The translations under genes and the position numbers were made by a program. From a virus (lineage: Duplodnaviria > Caudoviricetes): a stretch of DNA of 64,000 bases. Shown one piece after another: positions 262 to 40,122 of this stretch. The stretch covers positions 5,362 through 69,361 of the IMG/VR virus record IMGVR_UViG_3300037515_000354; one strand, given 5' to 3'. Under the pieces are notes generated by a model. It was not told the DNA's origin and did no database searches. It was given only the letters and a program-made list of their open reading frames with translations. Position 1 is the first letter of the stretch. Each line of letters opens with the position of its first letter.

Positions 262-2080
262 TCATCCCTTCGCGGAGCATTCGCCCCAGCTTGATCCAAC
301 GGGCGAGAGATCCGCGAGGATAGGGACTCCACGCCAGACCCATTCGAAGCTGTCCTTGATGTTCTTCCCAATGATCTCCGCCTGGTCCGCTGGCACCGAA
401 AATATGAATTCATCGTGGGCGTGACCTCGAAGATATTTTACGTAGTCGGGGTGTTTGTCGACCAACATCAACAACGACTCGCAAGTTATGTCACGCGCCG
501 TGCCCTGGCCCATGAGGGCAGGGCCCACGGTGTAGGCCCACGACGGATCGCACCGCATCTTGCGGCCGAATCCGTTGTCCAACAGCTCCCCGTCGCTCGC
601 GCGCTCGCGCACCTCGTCACGCCACTCGCAGAGTCTGGGGAAGTTGTTGGCCATGCCGTTGACGAAGGTCCAGACGACGTCCGGTTTGGCACCCTCACGG
701 ATCATTCGCTTGGCGCCGAGCCCGTAGTTCCAGCCGTGGCCGCGTGCCTTCGCCTCATGGCGCGAGATGCCGAGCATGTCGGCAACCTCCTGGTGCGCGT
801 CACGCCCCGGCTCGAAGAGCTTCATGTAGTTTCGATCTTGGCTGTGCGCCGCCACGGCGCGCATGTCCACCTGGGACAGGTCGCAGGTGATCACCACATG
901 GCCAGGGTCCGCCACGAACACGTCACGCTCGATGTGCTTGCCGTCGCGCTTGCCGTGCACGGTGAAGCCGGACCCTACCGACCACCTGCCGGACGCCTGA
1001 CGCATGCTCACCGAAGGGTGGACACGCCCGTCCGGCGCGAGGTTGTTGGCGTCCGTCTGGTAGATGGTGCGGACCGTGGTGACGACAGTGACCAGTTCGC
1101 ACAGCCGGGCCACACCGCCGAGATGGTACTGGCCGTCGTAGTAGTCGGACATGAGCTGCATGGCATCCCGGCCGGTCGCGATGTCCTTGACGTCCACGCC
1201 GGTGACCGGGTGAGTGATCACGGTCTTGTCGACCTGGGGGAAATACTTGGCCCCCAGATCAGCGAAGGCTCTGATCAACGCATCCTTGCCGTCACGCGTC
1301 GCCAGAGGCGCTTTGTACGGAACGAAGTGCTCCGTCTTGTTGGGCTTCCGGCCCCGTTCCACGGTCCGGCCCAGAGGGATGTTGTAGCGCTCGTTCAGCT
1401 CCTTCAGCGCCGCAGCCTTACGTTCCTGCCCCTCCCTGATCCGCTGCCGGAGCAGCGGCTCGTCGATCCTGAAGCCGTTCAGAGTCATGTGTCCGGCCAG
1501 GGTGGCAAGACGGTGCTCACGGTCGATGTACGGCGTGCGGAACAGCAGTCCGGCCACCTCGCGCGCCGCGATCACGTCCTGTACGAGGTAGGCCCGGAAG
1601 TCCGGGTCCTCGATCGGGATCCGGTCGTAGCCACCGTGCTTGCGCTTCAGCGACCCCAGTCCTGTGTCCCCGGTGATCTTGCCCTCGACCCCGAGCCGCC
1701 TGGCCACGTGGTCGAGATCGTACTTGTCCTCCGAGCCGTGCTCGCGTGAGCGAGGTGGTGTGTGCTGCCGGGACGCCGGATCGGTGTCCCACGCCTTGGC
1801 CGCGAGAGCAGCGAAGTCGGCCCCGTGATGCCAGGCCAGTGCCAGCAGATCGAACGAGATGATGTTGTGGCCCTGAATCACGTCAGCCGCATCCAGGGCC
1901 GCGATCAGCTCGCCCATGTCCGTGGTCAGGATCACGGGACCATCGTTGACGGCGTACCCGGCGAGTCGGCAGAACGGGCCGTCCACCGGCCGGTAACCGT
2001 CCGGGATCTTCACCCGCATCGTGAAGAGGGCTTCGGCTGACGCAGTCTCGATGTCAAAACGTGAGCACCCGAGTGCTCAT
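262..2080 (-). CDS. polA: Family A DNA polymerase with 3'-5' exonuclease. True start is probably ATG 2080, needing a +1 frameshift at 2059-2056 (605 aa); ORF-track version 262..2019
   Basis: ExoII GHNIISFDL, ExoIII YLVQD, motif A DLSQVDMR, motif B AKARGHGWNYG, motif C HAHDEF. ExoI FDIET lies in frame upstream of ATG 2019 with no in-frame start. ATG 2080 overlaps the upstream stop (ATGA). Confidence 0.93.
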
Positions 2081-2568
2081 ACCAACCACCCCCAGTTACG
2101 GCCGCGCCGTATGTCGTTGACAGCCCCTCGGGATACTCCGTACCTCTCAGCGATCTTGGATTCCGTCAGAGCACCGAACAGCCCTCGGATCTCACGTACC
2201 TGATCTTCAGTCAGTTTGACCATGTTGTGGCCGGTGCCCCGGAGACTGGTCCCATGTTGGATCTTGTCCGCATGGTTCCCGGGATGTGTGTCCCACCGGA
2301 GGTTGCTCGCGTGGTTGTTGAACCGGTCACCATCGTTGTGAGCCACCTCGTGCGCAGAAGTAGGCGCCGGGCCATGGAAGGCCGTGCACACGATGACGTG
2401 CACACTGGTGGACAGGTAGCGGCCGTTCCGCTCGATGCCCACGTGGAGGTACCCGGACCCCGACAGACCCGGTTTCAACCATCCGGGATGCCACCTACCA
2501 GGGCCCTGAATCCGTCCGTCATCAGAGATCACGTAGCCCGGATACTCCGAGCAGATTCGCACCCTCAT
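2077..2568 (-). CDS. NUMOD4/HNH homing endonuclease with C-terminal HTH
   Basis: YPGYVISDDGRI (NUMOD4-like), VHVIVCTAFHGPAP...VAHNDGDRFNNHASNLRW (HNH); start set at ATG 2568 by ATGA overlap. Confidence 0.9.
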   Translation of the reverse strand: MRVRICSEYPGYVISDDGRIQGPGRWHPGWLKPGLSGSGYLHVGIERNGRYLSTSVHVIVCTAFHGPAPTSAHEVAHNDGDRFNNHASNLRWDTHPGNHADKIQHGTSLRGTGHNMVKLTEDQVREIRGLFGALTESKIAERYGVSRGAVNDIRRGRNWGWLV

Positions 2569-4370: not shown

Positions 4371-4585
4371 AGGGGCCCACTTTACGGTGTACAGGGGCTC
4401 TGACCTGCAAAAACAGTGGGCCCCTCGGTGTGTGTAAAAAACCGTGCCCCTTGCCAAGGGGCCCACAGGGGCCCACTTTTTCTGATCATGCCCCTGACCT
4501 GCGAAAAAGATGGGCCCCTCAGTAGGGGCCCACAGGGGCCCGGCCTAGTGGGCCCCTGGGCCCCTCTCTTAGGAGAGGGGCCCAC
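4371..4585. repeat. Iteron-like array of AGGGGCCCAC (7 perfect and about 3 variant copies, both orientations); candidate replication origin
   Basis: Perfect copies at 4371, 4416(rc), 4457, 4467, 4524, 4548(rc), 4576; two CTGACCTGC(A/G)AAAA motifs near 4400 and 4495; immediately downstream of the primase/helicase gene. Confidence 0.75.
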
Positions 4586-18123: not shown

Positions 18124-18196
18124 TCCTCCGTAGCTCAGTTGGCAGAGCACCGTCCTGTTAAGTCGGTGGCCGCTGGTTCGAGTCCAGCCGGGGGAG
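18124..18196 (+). tRNA. trnN: tRNA-Asn (GTT)
   Basis: Cloverleaf TCCTCCG/CGGGGGA, D arm GCTC/GAGC, loop CTGTTAA, T loop TTCGAGT; one U-U mismatch in the anticodon stem; no encoded CCA. Confidence 0.92.
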
Positions 18197-18252
18197 CGCA
18201 TCACACAACCCAACAAGCCCGCAGCCCGCAGCACACAGCAAAGGATCACAGC

Positions 18253-26773: not shown

Positions 26774-26971
26774 ATGGAGACCAACCAGTACGCGACTGAG
26801 TCCAACACCTCCGTCTGGTACGAGGTGCAGCGCCAGTCCGGCAGCAACTACGGCTGGATCACTCTCTCCGACCACGACACCCGCGAGCAGGCAGAGAGCG
26901 CCATGGATGCCCGGACGGGTTCGGTCGCCGACCCCAGCTACCGGATCCGCCGGGTGCGCGGACAGGCATAA
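26774..26971 (+). CDS. Hypothetical protein
   Basis: Stop TAA abuts hammerhead 1. Confidence 0.7.
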   Translation: METNQYATESNTSVWYEVQRQSGSNYGWITLSDHDTREQAESAMDARTGSVADPSYRIRRVRGQA

Positions 26972-27031
26972 GGCGAAACGCCCCTCGGGGCGTCCGCCGG
27001 GGGTGCCTCCCCGGCGCTGATGAGCCAGGCA
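26972..27031 (+). ncRNA. Type II hammerhead ribozyme 1 (predicted cleavage after C26994)
   Basis: GGC-GAAA-CGCCC/GGGCG-TC-CGCCGGGG/CCCCGGCG-CTGATGA-GCC; loop TGCCT pairs with tail AGGCA. Confidence 0.92.
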
Positions 27032-27051
27032 CACGGACACAGGGAGCGATC

Positions 27052-27246
27052 ATGACCAGCATCAACCAGGGCCCGAACGACGACTACCGCCGCACCGGCC
27101 AACCGGTCACGTACCTCACCGCCGACGGCACCCGGCGGGTGTCCGGCACCGTCCGGTGGGAAGACGCGAACGGCGTCAAGGTGGATGTACCCGGACAGCA
27201 GTTCGGAGCGTACGTGTCCCACGCGTTCGTCACCTTCACACGCTGA
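27052..27246 (+). CDS. Hypothetical protein
   Basis: GGGAG RBS between hammerheads 1 and 2. Confidence 0.75.
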   Translation: MTSINQGPNDDYRRTGQPVTYLTADGTRRVSGTVRWEDANGVKVDVPGQQFGAYVSHAFVTFTR

Positions 27247-27250
27247 TCAA

Positions 27251-27310
27251 GGCGAAACGCCCCTCGGGGCGTCCGCCGGGGGTGCCTCCCCGGCGCTGAT
27301 GAGCCAGGCA
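27251..27310 (+). ncRNA. Type II hammerhead ribozyme 2 (cleavage after C27273)
   Basis: Identical to copy 1. Confidence 0.92.
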
Positions 27311-27330
27311 AACGAACCGAGGAGCCGGTC

Positions 27331-27531
27331 ATGGCACTTACCCCCGGAACACAGATCACCGTCCTGCTGGGGACCGAGCCGGAGCAGTTCACGGTCGAGA
27401 GTGTCGACAAGGACTGCACGGTGCATGTGCGGTCGAACGCTGCGCCGTACAGCCTGGTCATGTGGCCGACTGACTACCGCCTCGGTGCCACGCTGCACAA
27501 GATGGGCCAACCGGGTACCAAGGGTTGGTAA
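27331..27531 (+). CDS. Hypothetical protein
   Basis: GAGGAG RBS. Confidence 0.75.
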   Translation: MALTPGTQITVLLGTEPEQFTVESVDKDCTVHVRSNAAPYSLVMWPTDYRLGATLHKMGQPGTKGW

Positions 27532-27550
27532 CTGATCTCCGTCTGATCAA

Positions 27551-27610
27551 GGCGAAACGCCCCTCGGGGCGTCCGCCGGGGGTGCCTCCCCGGCGCTGAT
27601 GAGCCAGGCA
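27551..27610 (+). ncRNA. Type II hammerhead ribozyme 3 (cleavage after C27573)
   Basis: Identical to copy 1. Confidence 0.92.
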
Positions 27611-27624
27611 CGGAAGGAAAGATC

Positions 27625-27771
27625 ATGGATGCCGCAACCGAAGCGATCAGTTTCGCCGCCGCCGCGTGGTCGCTCGAACTGATCGACCACTACCCCGGCA
27701 CCGACGCCGACCGTGACGACATGATCCGCAATCTGGCCGCGTACGGTCCGGCCATCACCGAGAGGGACTGA
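27625..27771 (+). CDS. 48-aa hypothetical protein (not in ORF track)
   Basis: AAGGAAAG RBS; MDAATEAISF...ITERD. Confidence 0.6.
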   Translation: MDAATEAISFAAAAWSLELIDHYPGTDADRDDMIRNLAAYGPAITERD

Positions 27772-27776
27772 TCCAA

Positions 27777-28007
27777 ATGACCATGGACACCACCATCCGT
27801 ACCGGCGACGTTGTCGTGATCTTCTACGACGCCGACTCGCTGCCCGGAACGGTCTGCAAGATCGTAAAGTCCCGCACCGGCAACGTCCGCCGGGTCGGGA
27901 TCGCTCCCGACGGCGCGGACATCGTGGCCTGGTTCATCCCGGTGCCCGACATGTTCGACGGGGCCTGTCTGGTCTCGGTGGGGGGTTCCACCGTCGCGTA
28001 CTGGTAA
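27777..28007 (+). CDS. Hypothetical protein (SH3-like beta pattern)
   Basis: IRTGDVVVIF...PGTVCKIV. Confidence 0.65.
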   Translation: MTMDTTIRTGDVVVIFYDADSLPGTVCKIVKSRTGNVRRVGIAPDGADIVAWFIPVPDMFDGACLVSVGGSTVAYW

Positions 28008-28009
28008 GA

Positions 28010-28073
28010 GGCGAAACGCTCCCTCCGGGGAGCGTCCATCGGGCATGGTCCCCCGGTGCTGATGAGCCGGACC
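28010..28073 (+). ncRNA. Type II hammerhead ribozyme 4, divergent (cleavage after C28036)
   Basis: Same core; compensatory stems CGCTCCC/GGGAGCG and CATCGGG/CCCGGTG; loop TGGTC pairs with tail GACCA. Confidence 0.92.
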
Positions 28074-28089
28074 ACGAGGAGGAGCGATC

Positions 28090-37295: not shown

Positions 37296-37367
37296 ACACC
37301 TGTAGCTCAGGGGACAGAGCACCGCGCTACGGACGCGGAGGACGGGGGTTCGAATCCCCCCGGGTGT
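37296..37367 (+). tRNA. trnR: tRNA-Arg (ACG), one nucleotide short at the T-stem/acceptor junction
   Basis: D arm GCTC/GAGC, anticodon stem CCGCG/CGCGG, loop CTACGGA, T loop TTCGAAT. Confidence 0.85.
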
Positions 37368-37400
37368 ACGCAGACCACCACCACTACGTAAGGATCACCC

Positions 37401-39358: not shown

Positions 39359-39461
39359 CGTGGCTTCACTGGTTCTACCGGATCCTCATGTGCCCGTTCA
39401 CGGGCCATGAGTACTCCCTGCCTCTCAACCGCTGCATCCACTGCCGGAAAGAACCCCGCCC

Positions 39462-39725
39462 ATGGCCGAAGAGGTGAGATGGCCGCCGAAGCACGAGACG
39501 TACTGTCGCGAGTGCCGGAAGATAGTGGCCGCTCGGATCGATCTCGGGTCGCTGGACACGCCGGACACGCACTTCGTGTTCTGCACGGTGGACGACTACG
39601 GCCGCCGGGGGGGTCCGTTCAAAGTGTGCCAGGGGCGGCGCGGCACGTCGGCCCTGACCCACGGCATGGAAGACCCGAGGGCCGCGTCCTACGTGGGACC
39701 GGAACCGGTGGACCTATGCTTGTGA
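39462..39725 (+). CDS. Hypothetical zinc-ribbon protein
   Basis: CRECRK...C. Confidence 0.55.
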   Translation: MAEEVRWPPKHETYCRECRKIVAARIDLGSLDTPDTHFVFCTVDDYGRRGGPFKVCQGRRGTSALTHGMEDPRAASYVGPEPVDLCL

Positions 39726-39786
39726 CCGGACTGGCCAACGGCCGGTCCTGAAGGTCCGATCCACCGCACCGACGTACGGAGACACC

Positions 39787-40122
39787 ATGCGCGAGTATCA
39801 CCTGCCGAGCGGCGAACTGGTTCCGGCGGAACTGCAAGAACAGATCGCCGACGACGTACGGGATTTCGACCAGGCCCAGACGCCGGAAGCACGGTCGGCC
39901 GCCGCGTTGAAGAAGATCGGAAACGAGCTGCCGCGCATCCGCGCGGCGGTTGCCGGTGAGGACATGCTCGTCAAATGCGTGGAACGCATGGCCGTGGCGC
40001 TGGAGATCGTGGCTCTCAGCGAGCTGGGGTTCACCTCGGACACCGTCGCGAACACCACGCCCGCCCACCGGCTCATGGCCCGCTACGGTCTGCTCGACCC
40101 GGACGACGAAAGGCCGCTGTGA
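39787..40122 (+). CDS. Hypothetical protein
   Basis: GGAG RBS. Confidence 0.65.
   Translation: MREYHLPSGELVPAELQEQIADDVRDFDQAQTPEARSAAALKKIGNELPRIRAAVAGEDMLVKCVERMAVALEIVALSELGFTSDTVANTTPAHRLMARYGLLDPDDERPL

Follow-up and report, generated by a model that had tools for sequence, protein, structure and literature searches.

A one-base frame break directly before the proofreading aspartate of a predicted phage family A DNA polymerase, at a candidate +1 shift site

Among the described systems closest to the locus reported here is the +1 frameshift of prfB, the gene for release factor RF2, in which a short ORF0 of about 25 codons ends at the signal SD-N3-CUU-UGA-C and the main product is read in the +1 frame. 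Its hallmarks are: a P-site tRNA that re-pairs in the +1 frame; a 0-frame UGA followed by C; an internal Shine-Dalgarno (SD) sequence that precedes the P-site codon by about 3 nt; and a product that relieves the pause at UGA (autoregulation). A survey of 2,658 Actinomycetota found this frameshift in none of them; in M. smegmatis the full prfB motif supports a shift of only about 6.6%, which was attributed to the high demand for and supply of RF2 in TGA-rich genomes (PMC12421855). At CUUUGA, upstream refolding hairpins stimulate +1 shifting by bacterial 70S ribosomes in vitro (PMC6321510). Interrupted viral genes offer two further comparisons: the mobA/gene 60 cassette of phage T4 (PMC5009743; bioRxiv 10.1101/2022.08.31.505936), where the interruption is 50 nt long and is bypassed; and corrective frameshifting at indels, as at the G-run of the herpesvirus thymidine kinase gene (PMC5009743).

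Our window is a stretch of 64,000 nucleotides (G+C about 64.5%) from an IMG/VR record of an uncultivated phage, which amounts to 69,361 bases in total and is estimated to be about 65% complete. Its polymerase is best matched by phages of Streptomyces, Mycobacterium, Microbacterium and Actinoplanes, at no more than 38% identity (tblastn), and the likely host phylum is Actinomycetota. The window DNA had no blastn match among GenBank phages, and peptide-pattern scans of IMG/VR, the JGI metagenomes and the GTDB genomes found no close relative; the best JGI metagenome locus (L002) is 82% identical and lacks the N-terminus. The features discussed below all lie on the minus strand:

2086..2093, minus strand: Shine-Dalgarno-like GGGGGUGG for the ATG at 2080 (ORF0), 5 nt upstream of that ATG; anti-SD duplex -9.7 kcal/mol
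2077..2568, minus strand: free-standing HNH endonuclease gene, 163 aa (PF13392), directly upstream of the polymerase and sharing its frame with the polymerase body
2057..2080, minus strand: ORF0, 8 codons (MSTRVLTF) then stop, opening with an ATG that forms ATGA with the HNH stop; RVLTF is homologous to the polymerase N-termini of relatives
2062..2079, minus strand: 7-bp hairpin UGAGCAC-UCGG-GUGCUCA, -9.8 kcal/mol, within the top 2-3% of the genome's 22-mers
2053..2059, minus strand: UUU_UGA_C, a candidate +1 shift site at which the Phe codon in the P site can re-pair identically in +1, with UGA and then C in the A site
262..2055, minus strand: predicted family A DNA polymerase body in the +1 frame, 597 codons and stop (PF00476, E 3e-19; relatives at 62-91% identity)
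2044..2055, minus strand: ExoI codons D-I-E-T of the 3'-5' proofreading exonuclease, +1 frame; D and E invariant in 61 sequences
2017..2019, minus strand: internal ATG downstream of ExoI, at which the 585-aa gene call starts; no Shine-Dalgarno sequence serves it (-1.4 kcal/mol)

Read on the minus strand, the junction is GGT ATG AGC ACT CGG GTG CTC ACG TTT TGA C ATC GAG ACT, with ATG at 2080-2078, the HNH stop TGA at 2079-2077, TTT at 2059-2057, TGA at 2056-2054 and C at 2053; the T run (TTTT) occupies 2059-2056. One skipped base turns the last codons into TTT GAC ATC GAG ACT, that is FDIET, in a frame that stays open to 262 and gives a read-through product of 605 aa. The polymerase frame itself is open from 2076, where it reads ALGCSR-FDIET, and the seven codons that precede GAC in it include no table-11 start, CTG and ATH among the starts considered. 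Its first ATG, GTG or TTG is the ATG at 2019, which opens the 585-aa ORF (2019..262). In 19 relatives at 62-74% identity the N-terminus lies in a single frame and follows the pattern M-(0-25 residues)-(R)(V/I)LTFD(I/L)ETAxAxALFT; for several of them the continuous ORF was seen in their DNA. Both RVLTF from frame 0 of the window and FDIETASAEALFT from its +1 frame match these single-frame N-termini, so the change of frame sits within the T run and nowhere else. The frame break is genuine, and it falls exactly before the proofreading aspartate. Sequence and translations alike thus bear out what the first-pass annotation had described, namely the ATGA overlap, the two frames, the missing upstream start codon and the 605-aa product.

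The same annotation had taken FDIET for the ExoI motif, and this was confirmed by conservation and by structural superposition. In a family alignment of 61 members the invariant residues are D2 and E4 (ExoI), D70 (ExoII), and Y157 and D161 (ExoIII, YxxxD). A model of the first 223 residues (pLDDT 93) has a DnaQ-like fold; it matches exonucleases of the DnaQ type and, at Z 13-15 from gp5 residue 4 onward, the exonuclease domain at the N-terminus of T7 DNA polymerase. With 6p7e_C (T7 gp5) the match has Z 15.1 and an rmsd of 4.7 A over 197 residues, model residues 1-223 lying on chain residues 4-259; as model residue 1 pairs with gp5 residue 4, the D and E of FDIET pair with T7 D5 and E7, the pair that is mutated in exonuclease-deficient T7 enzymes (PDB titles). 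The polymerase domain is found at residues 349-599 (PF00476, E 3.1e-19), where Taq and Klenow also match. From its domains, its alignment and the fold model, the gene product is predicted to be a family A DNA polymerase with a DEDDy 3'-5' exonuclease of the T7 gp5 type. It resembles gp5 in having ExoI within the first dozen residues (D9/E11 here, D5/E7 in T7) and in combining this exonuclease fold with a PF00476 polymerase domain; it differs in that identity within the exonuclease domain is only about 20% and that the frame of T7 gp5 is continuous. In the model FDIET makes up the first beta-strand, so a product started at ATG 2019 would have neither the catalytic D and E nor that strand.

An N-terminus that contains ExoI could also come from readthrough of the HNH stop (UGA 2079-2077), yielding an HNH-polymerase fusion. 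The HNH ORF (2077-2787) and the polymerase body (262-2076) do share one frame, the codons of both starting at multiples of 3 in window coordinates, and are separated only by that UGA. A common frame is a 1-in-3 coincidence, however, and the linker ALGCSR matches no homologue whereas RVLTF of frame 0 does; moreover, no HNH-polymerase fusion occurs among the homologues listed, which reach 987 aa in a search that extended to 1047 aa. We regard readthrough as extremely unlikely.

The break would vanish if it were a sequencing or assembly artefact, the true sequence having three T's and coding for an ordinary 605-aa gene with an ATGA-coupled start. The first-pass annotation had put a homopolymer sequencing error or a recent mutation forward as the main alternative. 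The error now appears unlikely, given that the truncated call recurs in several independent JGI and Logan contigs: 6 contigs, from the JGI/IMG and Logan pipelines, carry the 585-aa call, and another JGI contig carries a variant of it that differs by 1 aa (P0002). The exact 605-aa sequence is absent among about 15 billion proteins, and a search over 30-331 aa returned no separately called N-terminal fragments. A run of 4 bases is not error-prone in short-read assemblies, and no break affects the very long ORFs elsewhere in the window (1450, 1336 and 712 aa). Nor is the corrected reading free of oddity, since TTT-GAC would itself require the rare codon TTT, which accounts for 5 of 205 Phe codons in seven large genes (200 are TTC); the six relatives with Phe at the position of the slip codon use TTC there. 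Taken together, these points make an artefact very unlikely.

The gene calls of the nearest relatives are truncated as well. P0003 and P0004 (91% identity; contigs of 57 kb and 15.8 kb) are called from a GTG two codons further on, without ExoI. Every protein at 91% identity or more is called without ExoI, and a search of the protein collection did not find ExoI in any protein above 75% identity. The polymerase is evidently a mosaic: residues ~20-95 are nearest P0007 (85%, against 72% to P0003), and the remaining 510 columns are nearest P0003 (94%, against 72% to P0007), which suggests recombination near the 5' end of the polymerase gene. P0007, the closest relative in the N-terminal segment (85% there), has an intact frame. 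Because of this mosaic structure and the intact P0007, the break need not be old and shared, and the truncated calls of P0003 and P0004 could have another cause. A more distant relative at 48% identity (P0098, on a JGI contig of 2,090 b) has a call that begins just past the ExoI region (MFRRKPGY...GTGFVRLCG) although the contig exceeds the gene; judged from this call, it may be a second N-terminally broken polymerase.

Granted that the insertion is real, it might still not be decoded by any slip. The gene could be a recent pseudogene, the phage being defective or dependent on a helper; or, after termination at UGA 2056-2054, ribosomes could restart at ATG 2019, 35 nt downstream, and make a 585-aa polymerase without ExoI and without proofreading. 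The 585-aa ORF shows no other defect, and all gene callers report it; a single inserted T is enough to make the site; actinomycete ribosomes are weak at the prfB motif (PMC12421855); the unbroken P0007 is the closest N-terminal relative; and the record is only about 65% complete by estimate. Against this stand the missing SD sequence at ATG 2019 (GTG 2013 likewise has none) and the loss, on restart, of the invariant D/E and of the first exonuclease beta-strand of the model. In addition, the family consensus is undegraded on both sides of the break, and the variant occurs in at least 7 contigs and apparently also in a 91% relative. Where the T was inserted matters too. The reconstructed gene has 64 homopolymer runs of at least 3 bases, and only this run, when expanded, gives a re-pairing codon together with a 0-frame stop; of 7248 single-base insertions, the 4 that place a perfectly re-pairing codon beside a 0-frame stop are all equivalent and at this site. 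A random homopolymer indel would thus land on the sole leaky site about 1 time in 64. Neither an error nor a neutral mutation would favour this site, whereas a mutation that has to stay viable would. We consider an insertion that is not decoded by slippage, in either version, possible though rather unlikely.

The reading that we favour, and hold to be on balance the likelier course, is a real one-T insertion at the Phe codon before the ExoI aspartate that is decoded by a low-level +1 slip. Initiation would take place at ATG 2080, coupled to the HNH stop and served by a strong SD (-9.7 kcal/mol, within the top 2-6% of background positions), and 8 codons would be translated. Once UUU occupies the P site and UGA-C the A site, some of the ribosomes would slip forward by one base; tRNA-Phe would re-pair with UUU and GAC would be read next. 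The slip would yield a proofreading-competent polymerase of 605 aa, beginning MSTRVLTFDIET..., with the predicted trans-frame junction peptide VLTFDIETASAEALFTMR, while ribosomes that do not slip would release a peptide of 8 residues. As far as the reading frames tell, the full-length enzyme can probably be made only by such a one-base forward slip at UUU-UGA. The hairpin may assist by re-forming just behind the ribosome: its 3' end lies 2 nt upstream of the slip codon. The UG of the start codon and the HNH stop fall within the hairpin as well.

How far does the site resemble that of prfB? It shares a short ORF0 with the main product in the +1 frame, a P-site codon ending in UU and followed by U, an A-site UGA with a 3' C (TGA 2056-2054, C 2053), and the identical hexamer UUUGAC, of which GAC is the first +1 codon. 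The re-pairing of tRNA-Phe is indeed perfect, as had been proposed, UUU_U presenting the same codon in both frames. The P-site codon is UUU here and CUU in prfB, and ORF0 has 8 codons as against about 25. At the prfB spacing, some 3 nt before the P-site codon, no internal Shine-Dalgarno sequence is present: within the preceding 20 nt the best anti-SD duplex has -3.8 kcal/mol, close to a value attained at 40% of background positions, and GGGUG sits 6 nt away. The product is a predicted family A DNA polymerase and not a release factor, so that no feedback loop relieves the pause at UGA; and the device is missing from the likely host phylum, where it works poorly (PMC12421855). The likeness is thus partial, and the argument from prfB geometry in the first-pass annotation is weaker than it was put there. 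The further proposal there that polymerase output may be coupled to the RF2 status of the host found no support; in high-TGA hosts RF2 should be plentiful. By analogy, then, the site would work as a shifty stop of the prfB kind but fails two of its defining features, the internal SD and the feedback logic.

The geometry also counts against the slip model in one respect: it follows wholly from one T added to TTT-GAC, which automatically yields UUU-UGA-C, and the likeness to prfB is accordingly less telling. The motif TTTTGA is not enriched in the window (7 copies, 6.3 expected); what exceeds chance is its position and not the motif itself. Several other routes of decoding were tried and rejected: a downstream stimulatory structure, the local region of 141 nt folding no more stably than shuffled sequence (z -0.09); decoding by a special tRNA, the tRNA genes of the window being only tRNA-Asn (18124-18197) and tRNA-Arg (37296-37369); TGA as a sense codon, since TGA terminates 4 of 7 large genes and frame 0 past the TGA is not polymerase-like; and transcriptional slippage, a 4-T run being far below the 8 or more that are needed (PMC3711429). 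A pattern scan of IMG/VR (ACN-YTT-TGA-Y..GAR-ACN-GC) for other ExoI motifs with an extra T found none, all 30 matches being in-frame FDxETA or chance. Within the polymerase gene, TTT is followed by T once more at about 400-405 of the minus strand (codon F560, ATA TTT TCG), with no adjoining stop. No shift is therefore expected there, and reading every TTTT as a single F would be wrong for this gene.

Given the weak prfB shifting in Actinomycetota, any slip at this site probably amounts to a few per cent at most. Still, we think that it offers, with modest confidence, the most economical route to a working polymerase in this phage. The nearest parallel for such a use is corrective frameshifting, which likewise rescues an important viral gene by low-level slippage at the run that was hit and leaves a useless non-shifted product; here the run is only 4 nt long, the A site holds a stop, and the indel brings no known selective benefit. 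The frameshift is best described as compensatory rather than demonstrably regulatory. That the slip occurs, how efficient it would be, and whether the site is an evolved device or a tolerated indel surviving at a leaky site are points on which we infer rather than observe. If the slip takes place, the proofreading motif of an essential replication enzyme would hang on a +1 shifty stop 8 codons into the message, and the host would come from a phylum in which the textbook prfB frameshift was lost and works poorly. The locus would then be a natural test case both for +1 slippage supported by a bare UUU-UGA-C with an upstream hairpin, and for the restart of non-slipping ribosomes, which would give a polymerase without proofreading. 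If the break is instead a recent, uncompensated mutation, the finding is an ordinary one.

The HNH gene invites a comparison with the T4 mobA/gene 60 cassette. Here as there, an endonuclease gene immediately precedes an essential replication gene whose coding sequence is broken after a few codons and calls for non-standard decoding. In the window the HNH stop precedes the slip codon UUU by 18 nt and the 0-frame UGA by 21 nt. The break itself measures 1 nt, as against 50 nt in T4, and would be decoded by slippage, where T4 uses bypass. The exact HNH protein is present on 8 contigs. A 52% homologue lies at 1778-2260 of locus L003, two genes upstream of an intact polymerase (a 64% relative), and L031 has no HNH homologue; on this distribution the HNH gene is taken to be mobile within the phage group, its family occupying different sites in related phages. 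All other matches in the range of 89-286 aa are at 52% identity or less, so that no close homologue was found, and over the same range none was seen on a contig as long as those that carry P0003 or P0004, the 91% relatives with truncated polymerase calls. A scan with a 5-sequence HNH alignment, chosen as the 15-homologue alignment was too divergent for scanning, found a polymerase near the HNH homologue at 0 of 80 loci. The HNH family is not seen beside the polymerase at these loci, and in L003 it sits elsewhere with the polymerase intact. By analogy with T4, the extra T might be the right-hand end of an HNH cassette: the enzyme would target the ExoI DNA (TTC/TTT GAC ATC GAG AC) of HNH-free relatives, and the insertion would confer immunity, tolerated only by virtue of the shifty stop. 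We think this decidedly unlikely. Were it true, the locus would be a one-nucleotide analogue of T4 mobA/gene 60, with phage proofreading gated by +1 frameshifting in a phylum thought to be poor at it.

Elsewhere in the window, a second apparent frame overlap at 39411-40122 was rejected, as it consists of two ordinary genes and an intergenic gap. A cluster of terminator-like hairpins with T tails on both strands is situated at 4446-4533, upstream of the small minus-strand genes that stand in a block before the polymerase. Finally, the plus strand carries, between small genes at 26971-28075, four type II hammerhead ribozymes (Rfam RF02276, 55-58 bits).
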